From Dehalococcoidia bacterium (GTDB lineage: Bacteria; Chloroflexota; Dehalococcoidia; Bin125): a stretch of 64,000 nucleotides of DNA. The translations under genes were made by a program, and so were the position numbers. Shown piece after piece: positions 1-30,275 of the stretch. The stretch spans positions 2,912,001-2,976,000 of the forward strand of contig OY820591.1 of assembly GCA_963555985.3 (NCBI GenBank), read 5' to 3'. Each line of letters opens with the position of its first letter. Positions within the stretch are counted from its first letter, which is position 1. The notes beneath the pieces were generated by a model, which saw nothing but the letters and a program-made list of their open reading frames with translations, did not search any database and was not told the origin of the DNA.

Positions 1-1
1 C

Positions 2-5766: not shown

Positions 5767-6986
<1,220 letters not shown>

Positions 6987-13143: not shown

Positions 13144-13901
13144 GCGGAACTGTGAGCCGGGAACTAAATCACGGGCACGGTTCGGCGGCAGACCGCTTTG
13201 AAGGGTTTGCGCCGGGCGAGCGGGTGACGCCGATTCCGCAGTCGTTCTGGCTTGAGCTGTTGCCTCGCATGAACGATCCGGCCGAACTTGCGGTGACGCT
13301 CTACGCGCTCGACGGGCTCTCGCGGGTGCGCCGGTTTCCCCGCCGCCTAGCGTTGGCCGAACTGCGCAACGCGCGCCCTCTGATCGAGGCACTCGACTCG
13401 CTCTGTCCCGAGCGCGAGTTGGAGCAGGCCTTCAACGACGGCCTGAGCGCCGCGGTTGAGCGGGGCTCGCTGCTCTGTGAGCGCATTCAGTCCAACGCCC
13501 ACAGCCCGCAGGTGGGCTGGAGCGACTGGATCGCTCTGAACGACGTAGATGGTCGGCGGGCGATGGCGTTCGCGCCGTCGCTGCCGGCGGCTGCCGCGTC
13601 TCTGCAGCCGGCGCAGCCGCGCGGAGGCGGGATCGTGCAGCTTTGGCAGGACGCCTTCGGCACCGGCTTGACGCCGCTGCTGCGCGACGAGTTGCTGGAG
13701 GCGGAAGCTCGTTATCCCTACGACTGGCTGCGCGACGCCTTCACCGAAGCGGCGGCGCAGCATGTGCGTTCCTGGCGCTATGTGCAGCGCATTCTCGAAC
13801 GCTGGCAAGAGGAGGGCCGCGATGAAACGACTCGGACCGCTGGTGGAGGATCTGGGTCCCGAATGGACGAATCGCGCTACCGACACCTCATCCGAGAGTG
13901 A
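13140..13901 (+). CDS. DnaD-domain primosomal protein
   Basis: C-terminal WLRDAFTEAA..RSWRYVQRILERW DnaD-type motif; sits between helicase and loader. Confidence 0.85.
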   Translation: MSGTVSRELNHGHGSAADRFEGFAPGERVTPIPQSFWLELLPRMNDPAELAVTLYALDGLSRVRRFPRRLALAELRNARPLIEALDSLCPERELEQAFNDGLSAAVERGSLLCERIQSNAHSPQVGWSDWIALNDVDGRRAMAFAPSLPAAAASLQPAQPRGGGIVQLWQDAFGTGLTPLLRDELLEAEARYPYDWLRDAFTEAAAQHVRSWRYVQRILERWQEEGRDETTRTAGGGSGSRMDESRYRHLIRE

Positions 13902-15309
13902 CGCCGAGAGCGATTCGGCAGGCGAGCGGCGTCAACCCGCCTGGACTCCCGACGGTCTGCCCGCCTGCGAGCTCTGCGGCGGCGCGGGCTTCGTGCGCCT
14001 CTCGCGGCCGCTTGGACATCCCGACTTCGGTCGGGCTGAGCCGTGCCACTGCATCCGCGAAGCGGAGGGGGCGAGACTGTCCGAGCGTCTGCAACGGCTC
14101 AGTAATCTCGGTCCGTTGGAGGGCCTGCGTCTGCCGCCCGAAATGTTGCTGCGCAACCCGATTGTCGAGGCCTGCGCCTTTGCCGACGCGCCGGACACCG
14201 ATCAGGACGGCGACGAACTCGTTTCAGGTGAAACAGGTTCGCCGGTCTGGATGGCGATCCTGGGCGAGCCCGGCTCGGGGCGGACGCGGCTCGCCGCCGA
14301 ACTGGCGAACCGCCGGATCGCCGAGCAGCGGCCGGCACTCTACTTCGTCGCCGCCGACCTGCTTGACCGTCTGCGTGCGGCGATGGGGTCGGCAAGCGGT
14401 CACGAGCTCTCGTATGCGTTGCTCTTCGAGCATGTGCGCGATGCGCCGTTCCTGATCCTCGATGACCTCGATTGCGTTAGTCCGACGGATTGGGCGCGGG
14501 AGAAGCTGTTTCAGCTGCTCAATCACCGCCGCAACCGTCGTCTGCGCACGGTGCTGATTGCGGCGGAGACGACCGGGCAGCCGGTGATGCAGGCGTTGGG
14601 CTTGCAAGCGTTCTTTCGCGGCGGGCGCGATCTGCTGCGGATTGAGCTGGCGGCCACGGGGATCGATGACGGCGCTTATACCGAGTTCGGTGGGATTAGC
14701 CGCGAAGTGCTCGATCGGTTCACGTTCGACGGATTCCGCAGCGAGGGCGCGGCTGCGCCGGGCGAGGAGAGCAACCTCTCGCTGATCAAGAGTGTGGTGA
14801 TGGAGTGGGCCGCCTCGCCGCGTGGCTGGCTCACGCTCTGCGGCAACGCCGGGACGGGCAAGACGCATCTAGCGGCTGCGGCTGCGAATGTGCGGCTGAT
14901 GGCGGGCGATCGGGTCTGTTTCGCAGTCGTGCCTGATCTGCTCGATGCGCTGCGGGCGTCCTACCGCGAGGATGCGGACGCGGCCTTCGACGCGGTATTC
15001 GCTTCGCTCAAGCAGGCCGATCTGCTGGTGTTGGACGATCTAGGCGCGCAGGCGGCGACCGAATGGGCGCGGGAGAAGCTCTACCAGCTCTGCGCGACTC
15101 GCCATCTGCGCGGCGCACCGACGCTGGTGACGACCAATCTGATGCCGGACGACCTTGACCCGCGCTTGGCTTCGCGTCTGCTCGATCATCAAATTTCGAC
15201 GGTGTATCGGGTCAAAGCGCCGGATTATCGGACGGGTGGGGTGGCGGAAGCGGTTCAGAGCGGGGCGTCCGGCGGGCGTCGGCGGTCTGCCCGCCGGGGG
15301 CGTCGCTGA
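13822..15309 (+). CDS. DnaC/IstB-like helicase loader with Zn finger and two tandem AAA+ domains
   Basis: CELC..CHC; Walker A GEPGSGRT and GNAGTGKT; two LDDL and WAREKL(F/Y)QL motifs; GGAGGG RBS before 13822. Confidence 0.88.
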   Translation: MKRLGPLVEDLGPEWTNRATDTSSESDAESDSAGERRQPAWTPDGLPACELCGGAGFVRLSRPLGHPDFGRAEPCHCIREAEGARLSERLQRLSNLGPLEGLRLPPEMLLRNPIVEACAFADAPDTDQDGDELVSGETGSPVWMAILGEPGSGRTRLAAELANRRIAEQRPALYFVAADLLDRLRAAMGSASGHELSYALLFEHVRDAPFLILDDLDCVSPTDWAREKLFQLLNHRRNRRLRTVLIAAETTGQPVMQALGLQAFFRGGRDLLRIELAATGIDDGAYTEFGGISREVLDRFTFDGFRSEGAAAPGEESNLSLIKSVVMEWAASPRGWLTLCGNAGTGKTHLAAAAANVRLMAGDRVCFAVVPDLLDALRASYREDADAAFDAVFASLKQADLLVLDDLGAQAATEWAREKLYQLCATRHLRGAPTLVTTNLMPDDLDPRLASRLLDHQISTVYRVKAPDYRTGGVAEAVQSGASGGRRRSARRGRR

Positions 15310-15317
15310 GGGGCCGG

Positions 15318-15368
15318 ACCCCCCTCTGTCACTTCGTGACATCTCCCCCCGCAATGCGGGGGGAGAGA
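15318..15368. repeat. REP-like double hairpin between convergent genes, possible terminator
   Basis: tgtcac-ttc-gtgaca and tctccccccgc-aat-gcggggggaga. Confidence 0.75.
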
Positions 15369-15375
15369 TGAGTGG

Positions 15376-16080
15376 TCATCCCGACGGCGGCTCGATCTCC
15401 GCAGCTGGGGTGAGGGAGCCTTCGATCCATTCTTCGCCGTCGGCCCAGACTTCTTTTTTCCAGATGGGGACGATGGCTTTGAGGCGGTCGATGCCGTAGT
15501 GACAGGCGTCGATGCCCTCGGCTCGGTGGGCGGAGGAAACGGCGACGGCGACGCTGGCTTCTCCGATTTGGAGGCGGCCGATGCGGTGGTGCATGGCGAT
15601 TTCGAGCACGTCCCAGCGGTCGCGGATTTCGTCGGCAATCTGGCGCATGACGCGGACGGCCATAGCGGGGTAGGCGTCGTATTCGAGGTAATCGACCTCG
15701 CGGCCGAGGTTGTTGTCGCGGACGACGCCGAGGAAGAGGGAGACGGCGCCCGCTTCCGGTCTGAGGACGAGATTGTGGAGGGCGGTAGGGTCGAGCACGT
15801 CGCGAGTGATTTGGAAGTAGGGCTCGTCGGCGCTGCCGCCGCTGACGGGGGGGATTAAGGCGACTTCGTCGTTGGCGCAGACGGGGTGGTCGGCGTGAAC
15901 GTATTCGGCGTTGACGGCGAACATGATCGAGTCTCGCATTCCATCGAGTTGGGGGAAGCGGGCGATGACGGCGTCGGCGACGGCGGCGGCGGTGAGCGGG
16001 TCGGGCAGGCCGTCGAGTTCGAGCCGGCGTGCGCCGCAGGTTTCGGCGAGCGAGGCGAAGAGTTGTACGGTGAGCCGCAT
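15376..16080 (-). CDS. moaE: Molybdopterin synthase MoaD-MoaE fusion
   Basis: MRLTVQLFA...ALIPPVSGG (MoaD) followed by HRIGRL..HR..PIWKKE (MoaE); this is the real part of the 875-aa ORF. Confidence 0.95.
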   Translation of the reverse strand: MRLTVQLFASLAETCGARRLELDGLPDPLTAAAVADAVIARFPQLDGMRDSIMFAVNAEYVHADHPVCANDEVALIPPVSGGSADEPYFQITRDVLDPTALHNLVLRPEAGAVSLFLGVVRDNNLGREVDYLEYDAYPAMAVRVMRQIADEIRDRWDVLEIAMHHRIGRLQIGEASVAVAVSSAHRAEGIDACHYGIDRLKAIVPIWKKEVWADGEEWIEGSLTPAAEIEPPSG

Positions 16081-16789
16081 GTCCTCAGTGTATCCGTCGA
16101 TCTTGCGAGCAGCAGGGCAGGCGCTGGATTGGGCGCTGCCGCCGCGCTGCGCCTGTTGCGGAGCGGCGGGCGGGCTGTTGTGCGGCGCTTGCAGCGATGA
16201 TTTGCCGCGCGCCGAGGGGCCGCGCTGCCGCCGCTGTTGGCTGCCCTCGACGACGGAGATTTGCTCACGTTGTTCGCCGCGTCCGGTGTTGCTGCGGGAG
16301 GTGCGATCGGCGTTCGTGTATGAGGGGCCGGCGCGGGCGATGGTGATTGGTCTGAAGCACGGGGGAGTGAGGGCGCTGGCGGAGACGCTGCTTGAGGTTG
16401 CGGGCGAGGTGACGCCGGCGGGGGATATTGACATGCTCTGTCCGATTCCGATGCCGTTTTTGCGGCGTCGGCAACGCGGGGGCAACCAGGCGGAATATCT
16501 GGCGCGGGCGGTCGCCAAGCGAACTGGACTAGCGCTCGAGCCAACGCTGCTGAGGCGTCGGGGTTGGCGAGCGCCGCGACAGGCGCAGGCGAAGTCGTAC
16601 TCGGAGCGGCGGGCGCTGGTTCGGGGCGCGTTTCGCGCTGATCCTGAACTCGTGGAGGGTCGGACGGTTCTGCTGATTGACGATGTGACGACTTCGCTGG
16701 CGACGTTGGAGGAGGCGGCGCGGACGCTGCGATTAGCGGGAGCGCGCGAGGTGGACGCCTGGACGGCGGCGCGGACGGAACTGCCATGA
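16079..16789 (+). CDS. ComF-family protein (double Zn ribbon plus PRTase)
   Basis: CACC/CGAC/CRRC/CSRC, RGGNQAE, LLIDDVTTSLATL; start uncertain. Confidence 0.9.
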   Translation: MSSVYPSILRAAGQALDWALPPRCACCGAAGGLLCGACSDDLPRAEGPRCRRCWLPSTTEICSRCSPRPVLLREVRSAFVYEGPARAMVIGLKHGGVRALAETLLEVAGEVTPAGDIDMLCPIPMPFLRRRQRGGNQAEYLARAVAKRTGLALEPTLLRRRGWRAPRQAQAKSYSERRALVRGAFRADPELVEGRTVLLIDDVTTSLATLEEAARTLRLAGAREVDAWTAARTELP

Positions 16790-18081
16790 GCCGTCCAGCG
16801 CCGCGTGAGTCGCAGTTCTGGCTTTGCTATCGACCCTGGGGGGAGGGAGAGGCTGCGCCGGCGCAAGTGCGGATGGTGGATCAGGCGCGGGCGGCGACTG
16901 TGCGCGATACCGCTGTCCGGGCGCGGCAGGCGGGGTTTGAGCGGGTGCGCCTGTTTACGACGGTTCCCGCTCAGTTCGCGGATCTGACGGATGTCGAACG
17001 CGAGCAGACGCTTCCGAGTGAGACGGTCGGCGAGGTCGTTGCGAGGGCTGCTGCGGAGCTGCGTGAGGCCGTATCGGTCTGTTACGCGGGTTCGGGGATG
17101 CCGGCGATGCCGGTAGCGGAATGGGAAGCGGTGCGCTGGTGGTGGCGGGGGGGCTGGTCGGTGGCGAACAATGTGTATGCGTGCGATTGGGTGGCGGCTT
17201 GGGACGGGCGCGACTTTGTTGCGGTGGGAGAGGAAGACTCGGACAACACGTTTGCGCGTTTGTTGAACAGGCAGATGGGGCAGCAGGCGGAATCGGAACG
17301 GGCGCAGGCGGACGAAGCGGATCGGGTGCGCGGGGTGGAGCGGACGATTTGGTCGCGGCTTGATCTCGATACGCCGGCGGATCTGGCGATGCTGTCGCTG
17401 GGGCTTGAGACGGGGACGGTCAGCGTTGGCCCTGGTTTGAGCCGGCCGGAGATTGTTGGTCCGGGCTGGCGTCGTCCCGAGGGTCTGCGGCCCGAGTTGC
17501 GGCGTCCGGTGCGGCGTCCGTTGGAGATTGGCGCGGAGTTGGGGCAGGTGTTGAGCGACTGGCGCGAGCCGTTGCAGGTAGCGGCGGAACGGTTGCAGGC
17601 GGTGCTGGAGACGATCACGGATCGGCGTCGGCAACTGTCGGTGATCGGTCGGACCAGCGGGGAACAGATCCGGATTCTGGATCGCGACAGCGCTTGCCGG
17701 ATTGGGGCGCTGAAGGAGTGGGGTCTGGGTTCGCGGGAGAGCGGACGGGGCGAGCCGCGCGCGTTGATTGGACTGTTGTTGGAGTCGCTGGGGGCGGAAC
17801 GGGTGGTGGCCGAGTTGACGCGGGCGGGGGCGGCGGCGGTTTGGGATACGCGGCCGGTGATTCGGCGTGAGTGGCGGGTTTCGCGGGCGGATCGGTTTGC
17901 GGCCGATCTGGGTTGGTCGGGGCGGATTCGGGACTCGCGGGTGCGGGAGTTGGCTGAGGCGGTTGAGGCGGTTGAGGATGCGCGGGTTGCGTTGGGCGGG
18001 CACTGTTTGGTGAATGCGGGTTTGGAGTTGGGGTTGCAGACGGCATGGGAGCGGTGGGAGCAGGGTGGCGCTGGAGATTGA
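16786..18081 (+). CDS. Hypothetical protein, possibly CofC/NTP-transferase-like
   Basis: LDLDTPADL resembles the DxDTPxDL motif; overlaps the comF stop (ATGA). Confidence 0.6.
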   Translation: MSRPAPRESQFWLCYRPWGEGEAAPAQVRMVDQARAATVRDTAVRARQAGFERVRLFTTVPAQFADLTDVEREQTLPSETVGEVVARAAAELREAVSVCYAGSGMPAMPVAEWEAVRWWWRGGWSVANNVYACDWVAAWDGRDFVAVGEEDSDNTFARLLNRQMGQQAESERAQADEADRVRGVERTIWSRLDLDTPADLAMLSLGLETGTVSVGPGLSRPEIVGPGWRRPEGLRPELRRPVRRPLEIGAELGQVLSDWREPLQVAAERLQAVLETITDRRRQLSVIGRTSGEQIRILDRDSACRIGALKEWGLGSRESGRGEPRALIGLLLESLGAERVVAELTRAGAAAVWDTRPVIRREWRVSRADRFAADLGWSGRIRDSRVRELAEAVEAVEDARVALGGHCLVNAGLELGLQTAWERWEQGGAGD

Positions 18082-18170
18082 GGCACGGTAGGGACTGGGC
18101 GGTCGCGGTTCGCGGCCTCGCGGGGGCTGTGAGAAAAAAACGAGGAGGGTCGCCGCTTGCGGTCGGGGGA

Positions 18171-18527
18171 TTACTGCGGCTCTTCCTCTTCCTCGAGGCT
18201 GTCGTCGTCGTCCGGCAGGGGCACGTCTTCGCCGCGCATGAGGGCGACGGCGATGGCGTGCGGGTGCAGGTGGAGCTCCTTCTTCTGCTCAGGGGTGAGC
18301 GGAGCTTCGGGCAAGCGGGGGGAGTGGTTGGGTCGGGGTTTGGGGTTTGGCTCGGGATGGGGTGGGATGTCGAGGGCGTGGTGGATCTCTCGAGTCTTGG
18401 AGTTGGACGGGGAGAGTTCGCGGATGAGGAGGGCGAGCGCTTTGATGCGGACGTGGCCGGCTTCGTTGGAGTGGGCGAGTTGGCCGACGCCGGTCATGGA
18501 GGATTGGTAGGTGTAGTCGAAGGGCAT
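18171..18527 (-). CDS. Small orphan protein with Pro-rich centre and acidic tail
   Basis: AAAGGA RBS, upstream TTGTAA-18-TAAGCT promoter, downstream T-tract. Confidence 0.55.
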   Translation of the reverse strand: MPFDYTYQSSMTGVGQLAHSNEAGHVRIKALALLIRELSPSNSKTREIHHALDIPPHPEPNPKPRPNHSPRLPEAPLTPEQKKELHLHPHAIAVALMRGEDVPLPDDDDSLEEEEEPQ

Positions 18528-18565
18528 GGCGGGGTGTTCCTTTCTTGGGGAATGCAGGACTCTTG

Positions 18566-18595
18566 AGCTTATCTGGATGGATGTTCGGGTTACAA
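18566..18595 (-). promoter_or_regulatory. Sigma70-like promoter with a degenerate SOS-box-like motif in the spacer
   Basis: Minus strand TTGTAA-ccc-GAACatccATCC-aga-TAAGCT. Confidence 0.5.
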
Positions 18596-18642
18596 GTTGG
18601 TTGGGCGTGTTGTGGTTGTCGGTTTGGGGGTTGGGTGCTGGT

Positions 18643-19102
18643 CACGGCGAGATACCCGCGACGGAGCGCGGGTATGACGGAAGTGGGCGCGGGGACAGGC
18701 TCTCAAGGGGGAGAGGTTTCTTGGGGGAGATTGGGGAAGTGGGTTTGGGGGTTTGGTAGTGCTCACGGCGAGATACCCGCGGCGGAGCGCGGGTATGACG
18801 GAAGTGGGGGCGGGGAGGGAGGTGCGGGGCGTCTATGCTGGGTGTGGCGTTTCGCCCCCTCTGCCCCTCTGGGGCATCTCCCTCCCCGCCTGCGCGGGGA
18901 CAGGCTCTCAAGGGGGAGAGGTTTCTTGGGGGAGATTGGGGAAGTGGGTTTGGGGGTTTGGTAGTGCTCACAGCGAGATACCCGCGGCGGGGCGCGGGTA
19001 TGACGGAAGTGGGGGCGGGGAGGGAGGTGTGGGGCGTATGTGCTGGATGTGGCGTTTCACCCCCTCTGTCACTTCGTGACATCTCCCCCCTGAGGGGGAG
19101 AT
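18643..19102. repeat. Tandem partial triplication of a REP-containing unit
   Basis: cacrgcgagatacccgcg..cgcgggtatgacggaagtggg at 18643, 18764 and 18969 (periods 121 and 205 bp). Confidence 0.9.
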
Positions 19103-19286
19103 TTTTGGGAGAGGATGGAGGAGTGGGGGTTTGGGAGTTTGTTGCGGGGGTTGCGTTGGTTTTGGGTGGGGTGGGCGTAGACTGGGGGTTGCCTTCTGTT
19201 CGCGCGCTGCTTGGGCGGCAGCGGCTTCGTTGCCTGGTTTTGCGGCTGGGTTGGGCGAAGTCTCCGGGTGCGAAGGGTTCGTTCGT

Positions 19287-20549
19287 ATGTCTTTGACGCT
19301 GGCCGGCGGTGCGCTGGCCGAGGCTGATTCCGCGATTGCCGGGTGGATTGAGCGTGAGGCCGTGCGTCAGCGCGACGGTTTGGAGCTGATCGCGTCGGAG
19401 AATTATCCGTCGGAGCCGGTGCTGGCGGCGATGGGTTCGATTCTGACGAACAAGTACGCGGAGGGGTATCCGGGCAAGCGCTACTACGGCGGGTGCGAGT
19501 TTGTGGACGAGGTGGAGACGCTGGCGATTGATCGGGCGAAGGCGTTGTTCGGGGCCGATCACGCGAATGTGCAGTCGCATTCGGGTTCGCAGGCGAACCT
19601 TGCGGCGTATTACGCGCTGCTGGAGCCGGGCGACACGGCGATGGGGTTGGAGTTGAATCACGGAGGGCACCTCTCGCATGGCCTGACGGTGAACATTTCG
19701 GGGCGGTGGTTTGAGTTTGTCGCGTATGGGGTGGATGCGGAGACGGAGCGGATCGACTACGACCAGATGGCGGCGGTGGCGCGTGAGCATCGGCCGAAGG
19801 TGATCGTGGTGGGGGCGACGGCGTATCCGCGCTTCTACGATTTCGCGCTGGCGGCCGAGATTGCGGAGTCGGTCGAGGCGACCTTGATGGTGGATATGGC
19901 GCATTTCGCGGGCTTGGTGGCGGGCGGGGTACATCCGTCGCCGGTGCCTCATGCGGCGGTGGTGACGACGACGACGCACAAGACGCTGCGCGGACCGCGC
20001 TCGGCGTTGATTTTGACGAAGCGGAGGATGCGGCGGCGGATTGATCGGGCGGTGTTTCCGGGCACGTCGGGCGGGCCGCACATGCACACGATTGCGGCGA
20101 AGGCGGTGGCTCTGCGGGAGGCGGCGACGCCGGAGTTTGCGGAGTATGCGGCGCAGATCGTGGCCAACGCCAAGGCGCTGGCGGAAGGGTTGCAGGCGGA
20201 AGGGTTCCGGCTGGTCTCGGGCGGGACGGATAATCACTTGATGCTGGTGGATGTGGGGGTGAAGGGTTTGACGGGGATCGCAGCGGAGCAGGCGTTGGAT
20301 CAGGCCGGGATCACGGTGAACAAGAACACGATTCCGTATGACAGTCAGAGTCCGACGGTGACCAGCGGGGTGCGGATCGGGACGCCGGCGCTGACGACGC
20401 GGGGGATGCGCGAGGGTGAGATGCGAGAGGTGGCGCGGCTGATCGGTCGGGCGTTGGAGCGGATCGACGATGCAGCCGCGCAGGAGCGGGTGCGGTCGGA
20501 AGTACGCGAGTTGGCGTCGGGTTTCCCGATTCCGGGGATTGCGACGTAG
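19287..20549 (+). CDS. glyA: Serine hydroxymethyltransferase
   Basis: [35 protein letters not shown]. Confidence 0.98.
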
Positions 20550-20595
20550 AGCGAGAGAGATTCGCCGGCGACGGCGGGAGTATGAGGAGCGAGCG

Positions 20596-20889
20596 ATGGC
20601 CCAGGCATACGAGATGATGGTGGTGCTGCACCCGGAAGTGAGCGGTGAGGGCGTGGAGGCGCGGATGGCGCAGTTGCGCGGTTTGCTCACCGAACACGGG
20701 AACAATGTGAGCGACGTGATCGATTGGGGCCGGCGGCGTCTGGCGTATCCGATTCGGCAGTCGTTTGAGGGTCACTACCTGATCGCGCACTATGAGGCGG
20801 GCGCGGCGGCGCGGCGGTCGGAGTTGGAGCAGGCGCTGTTGATCGACGAGCAGGTGCTGCGGCATCTGATTGTGCGTCGAGATCGGTAG
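20596..20889 (+). CDS. rpsF: 30S ribosomal protein S6
   Basis: YEMMVVLHP, WGRRRLAYPI, VLRHLIV. Confidence 0.96.
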   Translation: MAQAYEMMVVLHPEVSGEGVEARMAQLRGLLTEHGNNVSDVIDWGRRRLAYPIRQSFEGHYLIAHYEAGAAARRSELEQALLIDEQVLRHLIVRRDR

Positions 20890-20929
20890 GCTTGGCCGTA
20901 AGAGGGGATCGCGCACGAGCCACTGTCCG

Positions 20930-21068
20930 GTCATTCCCAGAAAGCAAGGACGCAAATGGCGCAGCCGGTCGGTATGGATTCCCGCCTTCGCGGGAATGAC
21001 GCAAATGGGGATTTTGCACAGGCCTCCCTGCGCGGGAATGACGGAGATGGGAGTTTGGCAACGGTCTC
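20930..21068. repeat. Nested REP palindromes and MITE ends
   Basis: 20974-21043 matches 56411-56480 (70 bp, 4 mismatches). Confidence 0.85.
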
Positions 21069-21095
21069 CGAGGGCGTTTGGAAGGACGGCGGGCA

Positions 21096-21527
21096 ATGGC
21101 GAGCCTGAACAAAGTCATGATCATCGGCAATCTTGGGGGCGATCCTGAGATGCGCTTCACAGCGAGCGGTCAGGCTGTGGCGAATTTCAATGTGGCCTGC
21201 AATCGCCGCTATACGACTCGTGACGGCGACCAGCGCGATGAAACCGAGTGGGTGCGGGTCGTCTGCTGGGCGCGACTGGCAGAGATTGCCGGCCAGTACT
21301 TGAGCAAGGGCCGCCAAGTCTATGTTGAGGGGCGATTGCAGACACGCCAGTGGGAAGATCGGGACGGGAACACCCGCTATACGACTGAAGTGGTCGCGCG
21401 TGAGATGCAGATGCTGGGCAGTCGCGGCGGCGGGGGCGGGGACTTTGGGGGCGACGATTTCGGGGGCGGACAACAATACGGCGGTGGCGGCGGCTATCAG
21501 GACGCCGGCGATTTGCCGTTTGAGTAG
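21096..21527 (+). CDS. ssb: Single-stranded DNA-binding protein
   Basis: [22 protein letters not shown]-terminal DLPF. Confidence 0.98.
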
Positions 21528-21580
21528 AGACAGCCAGCAGCGAGCAAGAGGCCGCGCGAAGCGGCCGGGAGAGTGATGCG

Positions 21581-22138
21581 ATGACGACTCCAGAAGAAGT
21601 GACTGAGGCCCCTGCCGCGCCTGTGGAGGAGGCGCCAACCGCGCCTGCTCCAGAACCGGCTGCGCCGGAACCGACGCCGGTGACGCCGTTGCGGGTGACG
21701 CCGGCGCCGACCAGCGGTGAGCGGGTGCCGCAGATGATCGAGCGGACGCGGCGGCGGGGGCGTCGCCGCCGGGCGCCGGTGTTTACGCCGCAGGAAGTGA
21801 AGAGCATCGACTACAAGGATGTGGACAAGCTGAAGAAGCTGCTCTCGGATCGTGGTCGGATCGAGCCGCGCCGGAAGACGGGTCTGACGGCGAAGGATCA
21901 GCGCAAGCTGGCGCGGGAGATCAAGCGTGCGCGTCATGTGGCGCTGCTGCCGTACACGGCGGAGCACATGCGCCAGACTTCGCGGTTCCGGATGGTGTCG
22001 CGGATGGCTCAGCGGGCGCTGCGGCGGGATTATGAGCCGGTCGCGCCTGCGCCAGAGCCGGTCGCGCCGGAGGCTGATCCTGCGCCGGTGGCGGGCGAGG
22101 CGGCGCCTGTGTCCGCTGCGCCGGAAGCGGCGGAATAA
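21581..22138 (+). CDS. rpsR: 30S ribosomal protein S18 with Pro/Ala/Glu-rich extensions
   Basis: [11 protein letters not shown]...[19 protein letters not shown]. Confidence 0.95.
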
Positions 22139-23440
22139 ATGGGTGAGGCGACGGGCTCGTCATTGGGGGTCGGCCTGCTTGGGCTGGGCGTGGTCGGGCG
22201 GGCGGTGTATGACGCGCTGGAGCGGAGCGCGGCGGCGTATCGAGCGCGGGCCGGGCGTGGTTTGGAGGTTCGCGCGGCGGCGGTGCGCGATGTCGCTCGG
22301 CGGGGCGATCTTGCGGCTGCGGGATTGTCGCTCTCGGACGATCCGATTGCCGTCGTGAGGCGGGATGATGTTGATCTGGTGGTGGAATTGATGGGCGGGG
22401 AGTCGCCGGCGGCGGAGTGTATTGAGGCGGCGCTGTCGGCGGGGAAGTCGGTGGTGACCGCCAATAAGGAAGTGATGGCGAAACACGGGCCGGCGCTGTT
22501 GGCGCTGGCCGAGCAGCAGGGGGCTGCGCTGCGCTATGAGGCGAGCGTGGGCGGGGGGATTCCGATCATCGGGGTGCTTCAGAGCGAGTTGCAGGCGAAT
22601 CAGATTGAGTCGGTGCGGGCGATTATCAACGGGACGACGAACTACATGATCACGGAGATGTCGAGCGGGGGCATTTCCTACGAGGATGCGCTTGCCGAGG
22701 CGCAGCGGCTGGGGTATGCGGAGGCGGATCCGACAAATGACGTGGACGGGATCGATGCGGCGTACAAGCTGGCGATTCTGGCTTCGCTGGCGTTTCGGGT
22801 TCGGGTGGCTCCTGAGGATGTGCACTGCGAGGGGATTCGGGCGTTGACGGGGCGGGACTTTGAGCACGCGCAGGCGCTTGGCTATGTGATTCGGATGCTG
22901 GCGACGGCTCGGCGGACGGCGCGGGGGCTTGATTTGCGCGTGCATCCGACGCTGATTCCGGAGGAGGATGCGATGGCGCGAGTGGACGGGGTGCTGAACG
23001 CGGTGGCGGTGACGGGCGATCTGTTGGGTTCGGTGGTGCTGGAAGGTCCCGGGGCGGGTGCCGGGGCGACGGCGAGCGCGGTGGTGGCGGACATTCTGGA
23101 GGCGGCGCGGTCAGGCGGTCAGGCGGCTGAATCGGCGCCGTTGGAGGCCGCGCCTCGTTTGGCTCCGCTGGAGGAGCTCTGTCTGCGGACGTATCTGCGG
23201 CTGGAAGTGCCGGATCGGGCGGGGGTGTTGGCGGAGCTTGGGCGTGCGTTTGCGGCGGAAGGGGTGAGTATTGCGTCGGTGCTGCAAACGCCGCATCCGG
23301 AGCGTGAGCAGTCGGCGGATCTGATCATCACGACCCATGCGAGCGAAGACGGGGCGATGGATCGGGTGTTGGCGGCGCTTGAGCAGTCGGAATCGGTGTT
23401 GGAGATCGGTGTGCGTCTGCGGATCGAGGATGCGGCATGA
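22139..23440 (+). CDS. hom: Homoserine dehydrogenase with ACT domain
   Basis: GLGVVG, VVTANK, YEASVGGGIP, GPGAG. Confidence 0.97.
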   Translation: MGEATGSSLGVGLLGLGVVGRAVYDALERSAAAYRARAGRGLEVRAAAVRDVARRGDLAAAGLSLSDDPIAVVRRDDVDLVVELMGGESPAAECIEAALSAGKSVVTANKEVMAKHGPALLALAEQQGAALRYEASVGGGIPIIGVLQSELQANQIESVRAIINGTTNYMITEMSSGGISYEDALAEAQRLGYAEADPTNDVDGIDAAYKLAILASLAFRVRVAPEDVHCEGIRALTGRDFEHAQALGYVIRMLATARRTARGLDLRVHPTLIPEEDAMARVDGVLNAVAVTGDLLGSVVLEGPGAGAGATASAVVADILEAARSGGQAAESAPLEAAPRLAPLEELCLRTYLRLEVPDRAGVLAELGRAFAAEGVSIASVLQTPHPEREQSADLIITTHASEDGAMDRVLAALEQSESVLEIGVRLRIEDAA

Positions 23441-24447
23441 GTTCGTTCCGCAATTCGGAGACCGCCGACGCGCGCTTGATGCGGCTTGAGGAGCAGTTGG
23501 CCGGGCTGCGTGATCGGATCGGCGAGCTGGTACAGCACGAGATTCGCGACGAACGCGAGATTGCGGCGCTGGATGAGCGTATCCGCGAGATTGAAGGGAA
23601 CGCGGTCAGGCTGTCGTCTCAGGTGAACTCGCTCTCGCGGGTGATGGAGGAGATTCAGACGCTGCGCGAGCGTTTGGGGCGGTTCCAGAACGCGCTTGGG
23701 GAGGGTCAGGAGCAGGTCGATGTCGGGATTCGGCGGCTGCGCCAGGAGATGGAGGCGGAGCGGGATCAACTGGGCGACGCGGATCGGCGGCTGCAATCGC
23801 TTGAGGGCGGAACCAGCGAGTTGCGGGATCGCTTGGCGACTTTTGACGATGCGCAGCGGCGCACCAATACCGAGTCGGCTGAGCTTGCGCATCGTTTGAG
23901 TCAGATCGAAAGCACGCTGGAGGCGCTAGGCGCGCGGATTTCGGCGAACGCGGACGGTATCCGTCGGGCGTTCGCGGAGAATCGGACGCTTGAATCGCGG
24001 ATCGAGGGTTTGGAGCGGCAGTCGCGGGAGTTGACCGAGCGGCTTGAGCTCTCGAATCAGAGTGTGCGGCGGGTGACGGAGAGTTCGGAGCGCTGGGATG
24101 ATCTGGCGACGAATGTGGAGGCGATGCGCTCGCGGGTTGACGACGCTCTGCGTGTGCTGGACGAGGCGAAGAGTGTGGCGGCGAGCGTTCGGCGAGGGTA
24201 TGAGGCGTTGGAGGAACGGATCGGCAATATCGAGCGTTCGGCGGAACAGCTCAGGGCGCGGGACTCGCGGCGGGAGCGTGCGGTGGCGGAGCTCGATGAC
24301 AAGATTTCGAGTCTGACCGAACTGGCGGCTGAGGATCAGGATCGTTTCATCAACTTGCAGGAGCAGATCCGGCGGCGGCAGATTGACGATCTGGAGCAGG
24401 AGATTCGGACGCTGAAGGCGTACATGCGGGTGCGCTCCGATGCCTGA
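23437..24447 (+). CDS. Long coiled-coil hypothetical protein
   Basis: Continuous E/R/L/A heptad-like sequence with no proline; overlaps hom and thrC. Confidence 0.8.
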
Positions 24448-25540
24448 ACTGATTACCGCCGCCGATCCGCCCATGAGCCGGGGCGTGTTGGAGCGTTACG
24501 CGGAGTGGTTGCCGCTGACGCCGGCTACGCCGCGGATCACGCTGGGGGAGGGAGATACGCCGCTGGTGCGGGCGAAGAGTCTGGAAGCGCGTACGGGGGC
24601 GGCTGAGGCGTGGCTCAAGCTTGAGCTGTGCAATCCGACGGGATCGTTCAAGGATCGGGGGATGGTGGTAGCGGTGGCGAAGGCGCTGGAGGAGGGGGCG
24701 ACGGCGGTGCTCTGCGCTTCGACCGGGAATACGAGCGCTTCGGCGGCGGCTTATGCGGCTCGCTGCGGGTTGCAGGCGTTCGTGCTGGTGCCAGGCGGCA
24801 AGATCGCGCAGGGCAAACTGGCGCAGGCGGTGGCGTATGGAGCTCGGGTGCTTGCGATCGACGGCAATTTCGACGATGCGCTGCGGCTTGCGCAGGCGCT
24901 GACCGAGCGGCTGCCGATTGCGCTGGTCAATTCGGTGAACCCGTACCGGATCGCGGGTCAGAAGACGGCGGCGATGGAGATCGCCGACGCGCTCGGCGAT
25001 GCTCCCGATTTGCATTGCATTCCAGTGGGCAACGCCGGCAACATCACCGCGTATTGGGCCGGGTACAGCGACTATTTCCATGCGGAACGAGTAGAGCGGC
25101 GGCCGCGAATGCTTGGCGTGCAGGCTTCGGGGGCGGCTCCGCTGGTGACGGGGATGCCGGTTGCTGAACCGGAGACGATTGCGACGGCGATCCGGATCGG
25201 TAATCCAGCTTCCTGGGCTGGGGCTGTGGCTGCGCGCGACGAGTCGGATGGGGCGATCATTGCGGTGGACGACGAGGAGATTCTTGACGCCTATCGGCTG
25301 CTTGCGGCGGAAGAGGGTGTCTTCTGCGAGCCTGCGTCGGCGGCGTCGGTCGCTGGCTTGCTGGCCCAAGCCAGCGCCAATCACAGCGAATCGCTGGATG
25401 GCAAGCGGGTGGTTTGCACGATCACGGGACACGGACTCAAGGATCCGGAGCGAGCCGTGAGCGCGTTTGAGGCGGACCTGATTGAGTTGGACGCCGGCTA
25501 CGCCGAAGTCGCACGAGCGGTTGAGGAGCGGCTCCGATGA
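24440..25540 (+). CDS. thrC: Threonine synthase
   Basis: [35 protein letters not shown]. Confidence 0.97.
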
Positions 25541-26112
25541 GCGACCTGATCGACCTGACCCGAGCCGAAGCGGCGGTGCGTGAGCTCTTGCTCGCGTTGG
25601 GCGAAGATCCCGAGCGCGAGGGCTTGCGCGAGACACCGCGGCGAGTGGCCGCCGCCTTCGCCGAGACCTTGGGCGGACGCGAGGTCGATCTCCCGAATCT
25701 GTTGCAGGTCGGCTTCGACGAAGGCCACGACGAGATGGTGATCCTGCGCGATATTCCCTTCTTCTCCACCTGTGAACACCACCTGATGCCGTTTCACGGG
25801 ATCGCGCACGTAGCCTATGTACCGCGGGGCCGCGTGGTTGGTCTGTCCAAATTAGCGCGGCTGGTCGACGCGGTGGCGCGGCGACCGCAGCTCCAGGAAC
25901 GGCTGACGGCGCAGATCGCAGACATCATGATGTCAACGCTGGAGCCTGACGGCGCGGCAGTGGCAGTGGAAGCGGAACACCTCTGTATGCAGATGCGAGG
26001 GATCAGGAAGCCCGGTTCGCGGATGTTGACTTCAGCGATGCGGGGGACGTTCCGCACGCAGGAGGCGACGCGGGCGGAGTTTCTCTCGCTGGTGGGGACG
26101 CAACGGCTGTGA
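25537..26112 (+). CDS. folE: GTP cyclohydrolase I
   Basis: [22 protein letters not shown]. Confidence 0.97.
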
Positions 26113-27131
26113 CGTTGACGGTCGTGCAAGGCGGCTACGCAGAGTTGCGCGAGCGCTGGTCGCGGCTGGCGCGGAGCCAGCGCGCGTCCGGTGCGCCGTT
26201 CACCGCGCCTGAATTCGGGGAGGTCTGGTGGAGCGTCTTCGGTCCCACTCACTGCGGTGAGCTCGAATTGTTGGGTCTGGAAGACGGCAGGGGCGAGTTG
26301 GCGGGGATGATTCCGCTGTTGCGATGCAGCGAGGATGCGCCGGAGGGGGCTGTGTTCGGATTTGCGGGCGATCACGAAATCTCCGACTATCTCGGGCTCT
26401 CCGCAGCCGACGGGCGTGAGCGCGAGGTAGTGGCTGCGCTATTCGAGCATTTTGATCAGCGCGGCGCCGTCAGCGCCGACCTACGCGGTCTCGCGCCGGG
26501 TTCGCCCTGGCCCGAGCTGATCGCAGCCGAGGGTGCGGCTCGCGGTTGGACGGTCGAGTTGAGCGACGAAGCTGTTTGTCCGGTCGTCGATATCAGCGGT
26601 GGTTGGGAGGCCTACCTGGGGCGGTTGCGTTCGCGCGACCGGCGTGAGGTGCGGCGCAAGCTACGCGGACTGCGGCAGTTGCGGGGCGCGGTTTCCTTCG
26701 CAGCATTTGACGAACCCGCCGAGATCACGGAGCGATTGCCGCTGTTCATGGCGATGATGGCCGAGTCTCGGGGGGACAAGGCGGCGTTCCTGACTGAGCA
26801 GATGCAGGCGTTCTTCGGCGATCTGACCGAATCGCTGGCGGCGGCCGGCTGGGCCCGGATGTACCTGATGTCGATCTCGGGCGACCCTGCGGCGATGGTG
26901 TTGTGTTTTGTCGTCGGCGACGAGCTGTTGTTGTACAACAGCGGATATGATCCACGCTTCCGCGAGCTGTCGGCGGGGCTGGCGTCGAAGGTGCTCTGCA
27001 TCCGCGATGCGGTCGAACGCGGACTGACGCGCGTCAATTTCCTGCGCGGCGACGAGCCGTACAAGTTTGAGTTGGGCGGTGAGCCGGCGATCGTGCGCCG
27101 GGCCCAACTGCGCCGGAGGGAGGCATCGTGA
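26109..27131 (+). CDS. CelD/BcsL-like (Acetyltransf_6) GNAT protein
   Basis: DYLGL, WEAYL..L....[22 protein letters not shown]. Confidence 0.85.
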
Positions 27132-28420
27132 AGCGTCGCCTGGCGGTGATTTCGACGCATAGCTCTCCGCTCGCCCGGGTCGGCACGACCAAAGCCGGCG
27201 GGATGAACGTGTACATCGACGAACTTTCACGCGAGCTCACGAGGCTGGGCTGGGACGTGGACATCTACACGCGCTGGGATCGGCCCGACTTGCCCGAGGT
27301 GATCGAAATTCAACCGGGCATGACGGTGTTTCACGTGAAACAGGGACCGCCCGAGCCGCTCTCGCCGATGGCGACGGCGGACTACATCGAGGAATTCACC
27401 GTCGGCGCTCGTGATCTCGCTGAATGCCACGAGCGGCGATACGACCTGGTGCATTCGCACTATTGGATCTCGGGTCTGAGCGGAGCTGCGCTCGCGCAAG
27501 GCTGGAACGCGCCGCACGCGACGATGTTCCACACTCTGGGCGCGATGAAGAATCACTACGGTCAGACGGAGCCCGAGCCGGCGGTGCGGATCGAGGGCGA
27601 GCGGCGGGTAGCAGCCTGCGCCGATGCGATTATCTGCGCGACCACGCATGAAGAGCGGTTTTTGATCGAGCATTACGGGGCGGACCCGACCCGTTTGCGT
27701 GTGGTTCCCTGTGGGATTGATCTGGGCCTCTTTGGGCCGGGGAACCGTTCCTCTGCGGAGGCAGTTCTGCGCGAGCAAGCGCCGGAATTGGGCGTTGATG
27801 ACGGCCCGGGCATTCTCTTCGTGGGTCGATTGGAACCGCTCAAGGGCGCCGACCTGCTTGTGCGGGCGCTGCCTTTGATCGACCACGAGCTCAAGCCGTC
27901 GCTCTGGATCGTCGGCGGGGACGAACGCGATCGGGGTGAGCGCGAACGGCTGCGGAGTCTGGCGCGAGCGCAGGGGGTGGATTCGCAGGTGCGATTCCTG
28001 AATGCCGCGCCGCGCTCGCTGCTGCCCGATCTCTATCGAGCAGCAGCCGTCTGTGCGATGCCGTCGTACTACGAGAGCTTTGGTCTGGTAGCGGTGGAGG
28101 CGATGGCAGTGGGTACGCCGGTGGTAGCGACGCGGGTGGGCGGACTTGCGAGTACGGTCAGCGACGGTCGGACGGGGCTACTGGTGGATGCGCGCCGGCC
28201 GGAGTCGTTTGCGGCTGCGCTCGAAGGCTTGCTGGCGGATCCCGATCTGCGCGAGCGGATGGGGACGACGGCGGCGGTGGCGATGAATCGTTTCGCCTGG
28301 CCGCGGGTGGCGGAGGGTATTCTCCGCACCTACGACGAATTGCTGCGGGCTGGAAGCTCGCGGCGGTCGCCGTGCGCAGAGGCGGAGGATGCGCTGCTTG
28401 CGGGCGCGGTTGGCCGCTGA
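27128..28420 (+). CDS. MshA-like GT4 glycosyltransferase
   Basis: HSSPL, AGGMNVY, HSHYW, HTLG, PSYYESFGLVAVEA. Confidence 0.88.
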   Translation: MKRRLAVISTHSSPLARVGTTKAGGMNVYIDELSRELTRLGWDVDIYTRWDRPDLPEVIEIQPGMTVFHVKQGPPEPLSPMATADYIEEFTVGARDLAECHERRYDLVHSHYWISGLSGAALAQGWNAPHATMFHTLGAMKNHYGQTEPEPAVRIEGERRVAACADAIICATTHEERFLIEHYGADPTRLRVVPCGIDLGLFGPGNRSSAEAVLREQAPELGVDDGPGILFVGRLEPLKGADLLVRALPLIDHELKPSLWIVGGDERDRGERERLRSLARAQGVDSQVRFLNAAPRSLLPDLYRAAAVCAMPSYYESFGLVAVEAMAVGTPVVATRVGGLASTVSDGRTGLLVDARRPESFAAALEGLLADPDLRERMGTTAAVAMNRFAWPRVAEGILRTYDELLRAGSSRRSPCAEAEDALLAGAVGR

Positions 28421-28458
28421 CGGCCGGCGGCGTTCGATTCAGGGTGAGAGGACGAGCG

Positions 28459-29247
28459 ATGGCCGAATCCGAGGCGGCGGAGGCTCGTCGGGCGCTGGTG
28501 GTGATGGCTCATCCCGACGACATCGAGTTCACCTGCGGCGGTACGGTCGCTCAGCTTGCCGATGACGGTTGGGAGGTCACGTTCTGCCTAGTCACGAGCG
28601 GGGATAAGGGCACCAAGGATCCAGCGTTGGGTCCTGCCGATCTTGGGGCGGTGCGGGAGGCCGAGCAGGAAGCGGCGGCGGCTGAACTGGGTGTGCAGCG
28701 CTGTATTTTTCTGCGCGTGCCGGACGGAGCGGTTGAGGACAGTCCCGAATTTCGGAGCACGCTCGTGCGGGTGCTGCGTGAGGTGCGGCCTGAGATTCTG
28801 ATCACGTGGGACGGATATCGGGGTTTCAATCACCGCGATCATCGGACGGTGGGGATCGCCTCGCTCGATGCCGCCTTCCCGCTGGCGCGGAACGCCAACA
28901 GCTATGCCGAACACGTTGCGCAGGGGCTAGAGCCGCATCGGGTGAATACGGTCTTGCTGGCGGGGAGCCGTGAGCCGAACTTCTACGTTGACGTGCGAGA
29001 TCAGCTCGAGCGCCGGATCGATGCGCTGCTGCATCATGCGTCGCAGGTACAGGCGGCGAATCGTGAGGAAATGGCGAAACGGATGCGTCAGCGTCAGCAG
29101 CAGGCGGCGCGGGAGGGGCGTGTACCGTGGGCGGAGGGGTTCCGACGGATGCTGTTCGGGGAGGCCCGAGCTCCGCGTCGGTCGGTAGCGCTGGTAGAGG
29201 AGCGCAAGGCTGCTGAAAAGGCGGCGGCCGCGGCAGAGGAGGGCTGA
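28459..29247 (+). CDS. PIG-L/LmbE (MshB/Mca-like) deacetylase
   Basis: AHPDD, TSGDKG, HRDH, HASQ. Confidence 0.9.
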   Translation: MAESEAAEARRALVVMAHPDDIEFTCGGTVAQLADDGWEVTFCLVTSGDKGTKDPALGPADLGAVREAEQEAAAAELGVQRCIFLRVPDGAVEDSPEFRSTLVRVLREVRPEILITWDGYRGFNHRDHRTVGIASLDAAFPLARNANSYAEHVAQGLEPHRVNTVLLAGSREPNFYVDVRDQLERRIDALLHHASQVQAANREEMAKRMRQRQQQAAREGRVPWAEGFRRMLFGEARAPRRSVALVEERKAAEKAAAAAEEG

Positions 29248-29248
29248 G

Positions 29249-30175
29249 GTGGAGGACGGGGCGCTGTTCCTGCTCTGGGCGAGCTTTGCGGCGGCGATCT
29301 GCGCGGCGGTGGTGTACATCCTCTATGCGGCGCAGCCTCGGCTGACGCGGGCGTTTGCGTTCAATCGCGCGGCTGCCACCGATCCGGCGACCGTTTCGGG
29401 CGTTGCGCTCAGTGTGTCTCCGCTGCGATCGCCGACGCTGGGCGGGATGGCGACGCTGAGCGTTTGGACAGCGGCGACATTGGGGATCGTTGGCTTGGTC
29501 TTGCGGAGTGTCGCTCTGCAACACGCGCCGTACAGCAATCTGTTCGAGTTCTCGATGGCGTTCGGGATCGCGATTGTGCTGCTCTACGCGATCTTTGAGA
29601 TGCGGTTTGGGACGCGGTTGGCGGGGACGTTCGTGCTGCCGGTCGCTTGCGGCTTGTACGGGAGCGCGCTGGCGTTTCCCAGCGAGGGACAGGATGTGTT
29701 GGTGCCGGCGTTGCAGAGTCCGACGCTGCTGACGATTCATGTGGCGCTGATGATTCTCTCCTATGCGGTGCTGGCGGTCGCGTTTGGGGCGTCGGTGATG
29801 CATTTGGCTCAGGGTTGGCCCGATCGAGTGGCGAAGGCGGGTGGGCGGTTCGAGTTTCTGCCCTCGGCGGAGCGGTGCGACCAACTGACTTACCGCGCCG
29901 TCCTGATTGGGTTTCCGCTGCTGGCTGGGGGGGTTGCGCTGGGGGCGTTCTGGGCGAATGACGCCTGGGGGCGGTATTGGGGTTGGGATCCGAAGGAGAC
30001 GGCGGCGCTGGTGACGTGGCTGATTTTCGCTGTGTACATCCATGGTCGAGGGCTGCGGCAATTGCGGGGGGCGCGCAAGGCGTGGATCGTGGTGGCGGGC
30101 TTTGCGGCGGTGCTGTTTACCTATTTGGGTGTGAATCTCTGGATCAGCGGCTTGCACTCCTACGCAGGGGTCTGA
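29249..30175 (+). CDS. ccsA: System II cytochrome c synthase, CcsA/ResC type
   Basis: WWD motif WANDAWGRYWGWDPKET, PALQS, GLHSY, multiple TM helices. Confidence 0.93.
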   Translation: MEDGALFLLWASFAAAICAAVVYILYAAQPRLTRAFAFNRAAATDPATVSGVALSVSPLRSPTLGGMATLSVWTAATLGIVGLVLRSVALQHAPYSNLFEFSMAFGIAIVLLYAIFEMRFGTRLAGTFVLPVACGLYGSALAFPSEGQDVLVPALQSPTLLTIHVALMILSYAVLAVAFGASVMHLAQGWPDRVAKAGGRFEFLPSAERCDQLTYRAVLIGFPLLAGGVALGAFWANDAWGRYWGWDPKETAALVTWLIFAVYIHGRGLRQLRGARKAWIVVAGFAAVLFTYLGVNLWISGLHSYAGV

Positions 30176-30245
30176 ACGGGCTGATCTGATAGGTGGGCGA
30201 CAGAGCGCCTGCATGGATTCTCCGTCCGAAGATCGCCCGTTTGAC

Positions 30246-30275
30246 TTGCCAATGCGTGAGCGGGTGGGATACGAT
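30246..30275 (+). promoter_or_regulatory. Putative sigma70 promoter of the str operon
   Basis: TTGCCA-18 nt-TACGAT about 190 nt upstream of rpsL. Confidence 0.6.

Follow-up and report, generated by a model that had tools for sequence, protein, structure and literature searches.

Short-range, gene-independent strand skew with co-oriented hairpin repeats in a Dehalococcoidia chromosome

Introduction

What makes one strand of a bacterial chromosome strongly rich in G and T over some ten kilobases, whatever the direction of the genes that it carries? The question is raised by a 64-kb stretch of a Dehalococcoidia genome (G000:C1:2912001-2976000, 65% GC; hereafter the window), which is part of the 3.1-Mb contig C1 of an assembly that is 96% complete, with contamination rated at 7.5%. 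A first-pass annotation of the window had singled out a G/T-rich domain of the plus strand and had linked it to islands of repeat cassettes and decamers. We find that this domain (14.5-25.5 kb) is the extreme case within an asymmetry field that extends over the whole genome and is shared by its family. The field consists of patches of 10-40 kb in which one strand is G-rich whatever the gene direction and in which hairpin repeats point likewise, and this layout is unusual.

Strand skew in the window

When all sites are considered in 1-kb windows, the GC skew of the plus strand rises from 0.12 at 14.5-15.5 kb to 0.38-0.40 at 17.0-19.5 kb, remains at 0.20-0.31 until 25.5 kb and at 0.11-0.23 until 30.5 kb, and has faded by 31 kb. 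Elsewhere in the window it is -0.24 at 3-4 kb and -0.20 at 48.5-49.5 kb, and it is positive again at 55-57 kb. The AT skew is -0.10 to -0.30 at 14-20 kb, which corresponds to an excess of T over A; at 19.5-22 kb the all-site T excess is gone, whereas the T excess at four-fold degenerate sites continues there. Four-fold sites show the domain most strongly, with GC skews of +0.52, +0.66, +0.43, +0.68, +0.45, +0.69 and +0.59 in the successive 1.5-kb bins from 15 to 25.5 kb, and over the whole window the four-fold skew in such bins ranges from -0.56 to +0.69 (the domains are listed in Table 1). The genes do not turn with the skew: 52 kb of co-directional genes in the window pass through four-fold skews of -0.37, +0.69 and -0.56. 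On contig C1 as a whole, which comprises 6287 windows of 2 kb with a standard deviation (SD) of 0.126 and a 99.9th percentile of 0.355, 23 blocks lie above 0.3, and that at 17-19.5 kb (0.39) ranks first among them. The SD of the four-fold skew in 5-kb windows is 0.305, compared with a sampling SD of about 0.04.

These values agree with the first-pass annotation, in which the plus strand was described as G/T-rich at about 14.5-25 kb and extreme at 17-19.3 kb. The same annotation had stated that the skew holds in plus-strand genes and in the minus-strand gene moaDE alike, and the four-fold skews of the individual genes bear this out (Table 1). The genes from rpsM to rpoA are C-rich on the plus strand, as had been described (rpsM -0.54, rpsK -0.56, rpsD -0.71, rpoA -0.30), and the region that had been reported as G/T-rich again at 53-56 kb lies within a domain of positive four-fold skew. 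A Ycf45-like gene had been thought to become progressively C/A-rich toward its 3' end. It is C-rich, and the drift along it is only modest, with four-fold skews of -0.48, -0.34 and -0.55 and all-site skews of -0.12, -0.08 and -0.26 in its successive thirds.

Sharp blocks produced by inversion or misassembly had been named beforehand as a pattern that would speak against the proposed interpretation. Contigs from three sequencing runs (three samples of one study) match 6-26 kb of the window in multi-kb pieces with 0 differences and break only at repeats, leaving the island at 18107-19061 unbridged. Gene order in relatives was determined by tblastn and synteny over 0-40 kb of the window. In all eight relatives the matched genes have the same order and orientation; five of these relatives cover most or all of the 40 kb and three cover about 11-40 kb. 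There is no break of order or orientation at the skew borders, and inversion or misassembly blocks are thus not what is seen here.

Skew domains across the genome

For genome-wide four-fold statistics we called genes with a sliding frame assignment of our own, which was verified on the window and yielded 461,231 four-fold sites. The regional, strand-referenced skew proposed in the first-pass annotation is present at four-fold sites, at two-fold sites and in non-coding DNA. The four-fold skew of plus-strand genes correlates with that of minus-strand genes of the same windows (r = 0.70-0.77; 0.73 in 10-kb windows), and the skew of either set correlates with that of non-coding DNA (r = 0.77-0.85). 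Once the sequences are referred to the local G-rich strand, the codon tables of plus- and minus-strand genes are identical and all 8 four-fold codon families shift similarly. Only a constant offset of about 0.12 toward C at four-fold sites follows the coding strand.

No two-replichore pattern was found along the contig: the profiles at 40 kb and at 100 kb alternate in sign, and the cumulative four-fold skew lacks a V shape. The skew is autocorrelated over short distances, with a coefficient of 0.48 for a separation of 8 kb that drops to 0.17 for 20 kb and to about 0 for 40 kb. Segments that are 1.8 kb apart correlate at r = 0.83 when they belong to the same gene and at r = 0.72 when they belong to different genes. 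The skew field is mostly positional, with a small gene-level component.

Skew domains across the family

The relatives, which we designate by G-numbers (the source genome is G000), were examined in sampled stretches of 100-520 kb per genome, together with one class-level outgroup, G024; G007, G014 and G031 belong to the same genus, g8. In all sampled relatives the skews of plus- and minus-strand genes are correlated (r = 0.61-0.84). The SD of the 2-kb skew is 0.054-0.159 in the 11 relatives sampled from the family (among them G007 0.159, G011 0.155, G005 0.150, G031 0.142, G002 0.117, G014 0.104, G018 0.086, G004 0.086, G008 0.079 and G003 0.054) and 0.126 in G000, where all of contig C1 was used, compared with 0.038 in the outgroup. 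The skew is therefore a trait common to the whole family. Its scale varies: in the patchy genomes most of the skew variance is reached at 16 kb (share of 0.87 in G011, 0.85 in G002, 0.78 in G000, 0.69 in G031 and 0.62 in G007), and in long-range genomes the corresponding share is 0.21 (G005), 0.18 (G014) and 0.32 (G008). One flat block of G005 extends over at least 240 kb at a skew of -0.2 to -0.3.

The polarity at a given locus is not shared in the same way. Orthologues in G000 and G007 show no correlation of four-fold skew (r = 0.003, n = 292), and those in G000 and G018 show a weak one (r = 0.29, n = 226). In the block that is syntenic with the window, the GC skew is about -0.25 in G007, -0.1 in G014, +0.17 in G018, +0.15 in G011, -0.2 in G005 and about 0 in G004. 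Sequence identity within genus g8 is about 80% between G007 and G014 and 74-88% between G007 and G031.

Nature of the base change

Across the domains the frequency of G at four-fold sites moves from 0.18 to 0.69 while that of C moves from 0.68 to 0.18. The GC content of these sites (GC4) remains within 0.85-0.87 throughout, and purines rise from a fraction of 0.27 to one of 0.745. At two-fold sites of the G-rich strand, C/(C+T) in NNY codons falls from about 0.87 to 0.66 and G/(G+A) in NNR codons rises from about 0.60 to 0.83, values that are equilibrium frequencies and not polarised substitutions. The first-pass annotation had attributed the skew to deamination of single-stranded DNA, with C>T and A>G changes. 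The signature of such changes is seen at two-fold sites, but transitions alone do not explain the main effect: an exchange of G for C at constant GC content requires an exchange of purines for pyrimidines, beyond the transitions that deamination produces.

MutS and UDG were considered as an explanation and set aside; both are present across the family and explain nothing. As separate observations, G011 has only a MutS2-type match and none of the MutS1 type, and in two genomes the MutS ATPase domain is found in two pieces within one frame (G002:C3:2058409-2059053 and G013:C26:32771-33388), possibly owing to an insertion.

Hairpin repeats

The hairpin that characterises the repeat islands (GCGGGWATGACGG) resembles REP elements and has the form gag-ATWCCNG-loop-CNGGWAT-gacgg, in which the variation of the stems is compensatory and the flanks show little conservation. 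It is short, intergenic and palindromic, and its 11-mer core occurs in 338 exact copies in G000, compared with about 4.5 expected by a hand estimate. The window gave 0 matches in a search against Rfam. Hairpin orientation was called from the flanking triplets GAC and GTC, which have equal counts of G and C, so that the call carries no composition bias.

The orientation of the hairpins follows the skew. Co-orientation with the flanking four-fold skew is seen in 167 of 205 islands of G000, whereas 2000 circular shifts of the data yield 50% on average and 63.9% at most. Where the absolute four-fold skew (|skew4|) is at least 0.3, 161 of 167 hairpin copies are concordant, and the density of copies there is 20-24 per 100 kb, compared with 6-10 at lower skew. 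The association is present in all four gene contexts. Islands also lie in more strongly skewed surroundings than other intergenic DNA (flanking |skew4| of 0.294 compared with 0.207 at 1161 other intergenic points, p = 2.5e-12, bearing in mind that p-values over neighbouring genes or related genomes exaggerate independence). The dependence on dose is weak, with |skew4| of 0.294, 0.307 and 0.327 for islands with at least one, at least two and at least three copies. When the skew is averaged around hairpins it stays level at 0.25-0.27 between -3 and +5 kb and declines to about 0.1 by 10 kb; the profile is symmetric, with no step or asymmetry at the hairpin itself (Wilcoxon p = 0.09-0.4). Because this averaged peak decays like the autocorrelation of the skew field, it does not show that the islands are its source. 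Among the 85 domains with |D| of at least 0.3, seven have no hairpin copy within 4 kb.

Similar relations are found in some relatives, in which copies were counted by a 13-mer pattern search (G007 746, G031 232, G018 144, G014 15, G002 1, G011 0 and G005 0). The number of copies concordant with the local skew is 72 of 85 for G007, 24 of 26 for G031 and 6 of 17 for G018. The 5 copies of G000 in the syntenic block all have plus orientation and lie within a plus domain, and the 11 copies of G007 there all have minus orientation and lie within a minus domain; the G007 hairpins at about 5.2 and 13.7 kb coincide with its two local skew minima. Over orthologues, the skew follows the repeats of the gene's own genome (rho 0.44-0.57) and the difference in skew follows the difference in repeats (rho 0.42), while skew compared with the repeats of another genome gives 0.02 and 0.05 for G000 and G007 in the two directions and -0.01 for G000 skew and G018 repeats. 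An exception is G018, whose skew is related to the repeats of G000 with rho 0.22 (p 0.001) and to its own repeats with rho -0.20. Many of the hairpins listed for G018 are inverted pairs about 138 nt apart, similar to the ends of small miniature inverted-repeat transposable elements (MITEs), whereas the copies of G000 and G007 are single or in tandem.

Two further searches were negative. No frequent hairpin family was found in the 140 kb sampled from each of G011 and G002, and scans of k-mers for other oriented motifs in the relatives returned only G-rich coding words or small-sample matches, as expected from composition and multiple testing. The first-pass annotation had regarded the islands as foci of the skew. 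One part of that claim holds, since hairpins are co-oriented and enriched at strong skew in G000, G007 and G031, and skew is indeed correlated with both the position and the orientation of the repeats. The other part does not, as islands are not required: patches occur in G011 and G002, and strong skew in G005, with at most one copy per genome in the 13-mer search.

Possible origins of the skew field

We tentatively favor a regional mutational strand asymmetry, common to the family, in which the hairpins are strand-specific passengers. According to this possible scenario, in each patch one strand would gain G (and T) and lose C (and A) wherever selection on a site is weak. Chromosomal position would set the polarity of a patch, which would depend neither on transcription nor on gene identity nor on a two-replichore layout and would turn over faster than gene order. 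The G/T-rich strand would be more often single-stranded or would be copied with lower fidelity, in a setting of DNA synthesis of locally biased direction, such as replication restart or other locally started synthesis. Hairpins would insert or survive only when the exposed G-rich strand is the one that bears the GACGG tail; they would thus mark the polarity and gather where it is strongest without creating it. We read the hairpins as markers because strong skew exists without them (G011, G002, G005), because dose dependence is weak and because the averaged profile is symmetric.

A number of observations weigh against this proposal. The G-rich strand is not enriched in genes, as the domain skew is unrelated to the fraction of plus-strand coding (r = 0.04 in 393 windows and r = -0.08 in a second calculation). 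A dnaA gene is present in G000 (at 64 kb, where the skew does not switch), and contig C1 retains a weak replichore-like gene orientation (about 56% plus at 0-1.3 Mb and about 45% plus at 1.3-2.8 Mb) that the skew ignores. Among the 18 steps of at least 0.6 between adjacent 4-kb windows, 9 go up and 9 go down with similar sharpness; a weak asymmetry is seen in the skew increments at 8-12 kb, whose skewness is 0.25-0.35, with 0 outside the confidence intervals. A transposase that might serve the hairpins was not found; the Y1 transposase (Y1_Tnp, PF01797) is absent from G000 and from all 21 family genomes searched. Finally, the strongest patches of G000, G007 and G031 lie on hairpin clusters; within genus g8 the hairpin-rich G007 and G031 are patchy, while the hairpin-poor G014 has long-range blocks; and G018 combines its 144 copies, many of them in inverted pairs, with weak skew.

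These last observations favor the alternative in which the hairpins are the cause, as had been proposed with the first-pass annotation: a strand-specific nick, gap or priming event at oriented hairpins would expose or resynthesise one strand for several kb on both sides. The same mechanism would account for the co-orientation of islands in G000, which is nearly complete at strong skew and is accompanied by higher density and stronger flanking skew, for the concordance in G007 and G031, and for the way in which the orthologue skew of each genome, G018 excepted, tracks its own repeats. We nevertheless consider it somewhat unlikely, given that the patchiness of G011 and G002 and the strong skew of G005 occur with 0, 1 and 0 copies, respectively, that some domains lack a nearby copy, that dose dependence is weak and the averaged profile has no step, and that no nicking enzyme was identified by protein-family searches in G000 and the family. 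A related view, which we find unlikely, is that hairpins are functional start or nick sites, specific for one strand, and determine the direction in which DNA is locally synthesised or gaps are repaired. If this were true, a mobile repeat family would organise the mutational asymmetry of a chromosome into patches of about 10 kb or, in an equivalent form, the chromosome would be copied from many locally determined sites, with hairpins acting only on the exposed strand.

The remaining explanations fare less well. Segments of a few kilobases to tens of kilobases could have been imported by recombination from relatives whose polarity at the locus is opposite. Opposite skews do occur at the same syntenic locus in relatives, the skew differs somewhat from gene to gene (as the correlations within and between genes at 1.8 kb indicate), and at four-fold sites the domain resembles plateaus with edges of at most 3 kb, in addition to the 18 large steps mentioned above. 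Such a mosaic would leave the patches of the donors to be explained, as these are themselves patchy; amino-acid identity to the eight relatives reveals no segment with a distinct nearest relative, and the 161 of 167 co-oriented hairpins would go unexplained unless they were carried in or inserted later according to strand. We judge it improbable. Ordinary replication skew that has been scrambled by inversions, or a chimeric assembly, is very improbable: the window is already in contradiction with it, since 52 kb of its co-directional genes keep the order and orientation of the relatives that cover them while the skew changes sign, short-read contigs of the three samples agree with the assembly, and three relatives assembled as single contigs are patchy as well. 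What can be said for scrambled replichores is that G005 has its long flat block, that in negative windows of this genome most genes are on the G-rich strand, with a plus-gene fraction of 0.31 compared with 0.49, a difference that is not significant, and that G031 has a breakpoint inside the block. Equally hard to credit as the main cause is selection on codon usage, or a transcription-coupled bias linked to expression. Coding strands are C-rich on average, by the offset given above, and the highly expressed rpsF and ssb genes escape the regional skew, so a small additive term of this kind survives; the plus-strand skew is nonetheless shared by minus-strand genes, plus-strand genes and non-coding DNA, orthologue skew is uncorrelated between genera, and the sign changes along one co-directional run of genes.

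Comparison with known systems

The skew of bacterial replichores is the closest parallel. Here, as there, GC and TA skew are referred to the strand and independent of gene direction, the favored strand is rich in G and T, synonymous and non-coding sites are both affected, and codon choice is shifted. The differences are the lack of two arms and of a switch tied to dnaA, a correlation length of about 10 kb instead of megabases, the lack of a gene excess on the G-rich strand, a sign that differs between genera in an unbroken syntenic block, and a very large amplitude (four-fold GC skew of -0.7 to +0.7), to our knowledge among the strongest known. In vertebrate mitochondrial DNA, strand-displacement replication produces gradients of skew in which C>T and A>G changes are attributed to the time spent single-stranded, with purines and pyrimidines balanced. 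The very large four-fold skew, the C>T/A>G signature and a hairpin that acts only when single-stranded recall that system, in contrast to which G is exchanged for C here at constant GC content and many patches of both signs occur on a 3-Mb chromosome. The skew N-domains of mammals, which have many origins, sharp upward jumps and slow declines, likewise extend over tens of kilobases independently of gene direction; in G000, sharp jumps upward followed by slow declines are not evident at the 4-kb scale, and the weak asymmetry appears only at 8-12 kb.

REP elements linked to RAYT carry a GTAG head, unlike the present hairpins, in which GACGG is the conserved tail. Single-strand transposons of the IS200/IS605 family insert in the orientation of the lagging-strand template (PMC5027513), and they offer a precedent for hairpins as passengers. 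IS200/IS605 and REP elements share with the present repeats the property of being short hairpins whose orientation follows an asymmetry between the chromosome strands. They differ in that the 21 family genomes searched yielded no Y1/RAYT transposase and in that the asymmetry here is local and not replichore-wide. Irregular skew in cyanobacteria is weak or noisy, whereas here it is strong, structured and short-range, and dnaA is present. For some cyanobacteria irregular GC-skew profiles have been linked to DnaA-independent replication (PMC7198777), and they share with our genome a chromosome that lacks the usual two-arm skew. A search of the literature, subscription journals and supplements excepted, turned up no account of strong skew patches that are short-range, independent of genes and linked to the orientation of repeats.

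Strand skew is a standard read-out of how bacterial chromosomes are copied and a standard check on assemblies, and here a whole family breaks the rule, with a repeat family that tracks the skew with about 96% fidelity where the skew is strong. Under any model the patches provide a natural map of a strand-specific DNA transaction. In this lineage origin prediction from skew, expression prediction from codon usage and detection of misassembly from skew will mislead, and phylogenies based on synonymous sites or on skew-sensitive amino acids may be biased.

Genes and repeats of the window

The identities of genes in the window were assigned with Pfam (Table 1). An 875-aa frame at 15376-18003, which is taken by callers based on open reading frames (ORFs), was rejected as a shadow frame on the strength of Pfam and synteny.

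Table 1. Skew domains, genes and repeats of the window (positions counted from its first nucleotide; four-fold, GC skew at four-fold degenerate sites).
Feature	Position	Strand	Details
C/A-rich (plus strand) domain around the 3.45-4.2 kb island	1..7500		four-fold -0.29 to -0.37
Repeat island	3446-4185		GC skew -0.23
Decamer array GACAAATCTG, 5.3 copies	4048..4100	+	C/A-rich form on plus strand
G/T-rich (plus strand) domain	13700..31000		core 15-25.5 kb, four-fold +0.43 to +0.69; shoulder 25.5-31 kb, +0.17 to +0.41
Double-AAA protein, 515 aa (IstB- and DnaA-ATPase-like modules)	13762-15309	+	Pfam
moaD-moaE fusion gene (moaDE)	15376..16070	-	Pfam ThiS + MoaE; four-fold -0.78 on coding strand, +0.78 on plus strand
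comF-like gene (double zinc ribbon + phosphoribosyltransferase)	16100..16789	+	Pfam; four-fold +0.64
Conserved 431-aa gene	16786..18081	+	no Pfam family; four-fold +0.68
ORF118, 118-aa frame	18171..18527	-	without family; four-fold +0.68 on plus strand
Repeat island	18528..19286	+	205-nt unit x1.9 (18687-19068); hairpins at 18668, 18789 and 18994, GACGG tail on plus strand
glyA (serine hydroxymethyltransferase)	19287..20549	+	Pfam; four-fold +0.70
rpsF and ssb	20597..21527	+	Pfam; four-fold rpsF +0.08, ssb -0.13
Two co-oriented hairpin copies (20990, 21032) between rpsF and ssb	20890..21077	+	
C-rich (plus strand) domain, end of ribosomal-protein cluster (secY to rpoA)	42000..51000		four-fold -0.28 to -0.56
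Intergenic stretch	48596-48695		GC skew -0.43
Decamer array CGAACACACC, 3.5 copies, upstream of rpsD	48630..48671	+	C/A-rich form on plus strand
G/T-rich (plus strand) domain, mainly minus-strand genes	52500..60000		four-fold +0.30 to +0.36
Island with hairpins both ways	52743..52908		2 minus, 2 plus
Decamer arrays (GTGTCCGATT and others), upstream of minus-strand gene	55705..56058	+	G/T-rich form on plus strand
Island in plus domain	56142..56479		4 plus and 1 minus hairpin copies

The gene for the double-AAA protein sits just upstream of the skew maximum and is syntenic in eight of eight relatives. For the 431-aa gene, syntenic tblastn matches of 33-38% identity were obtained in G014, G007, G018, G011 and G002. 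Neither moaDE nor ORF118 has a match at this position in any of the eight syntenic relatives, and judging from the sequence comparison these two genes, which are located at the skew maximum, look like insertions specific to G000. The adjoining island at 18528-19286 has a composition of G 0.45, C 0.19, T 0.25 and A 0.12 and a DNA folding z-score of -3.1.

The genes rpsF and ssb depart from the regional four-fold skew of about +0.7, and selection on codon choice may be the reason; the adjoining plus-strand gene rpsR (+0.72) does not depart from it, and the three genes after rpsR have four-fold skews of +0.53 to +0.74. The summed contig depth at 20675-21341, which includes the hairpin pair between rpsF and ssb, is 4,000-13,300, compared with about 10-30 nearby; the hairpin repeat is common to very many contigs of these samples, and we draw from this no property of G000. 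All three decamer sites lie upstream of genes, and at each of them the coding strand of the gene that follows carries the C/A-rich form; decamer orientation may thus be governed by the gene instead of the skew.

Some minor differences of arrangement were seen in the relatives and on other contigs. The interval from the AAA gene to comF is about 9 kb longer in G014 (about 8.2-17.0 kb of the G014 block) than in G000. In G031 the glyA block is split between about 822-832 kb and about 878-887 kb, on opposite strands. The small G000 contigs C2, C9 and C10 (14-55 kb) each have a uniform skew, of +0.19, -0.16 and -0.15, respectively. A stretch of about 1 kb in G007 (L096:1574-2593) is found in dozens of copies of 64-78% identity across G031 and represents a multi-copy gene or element.

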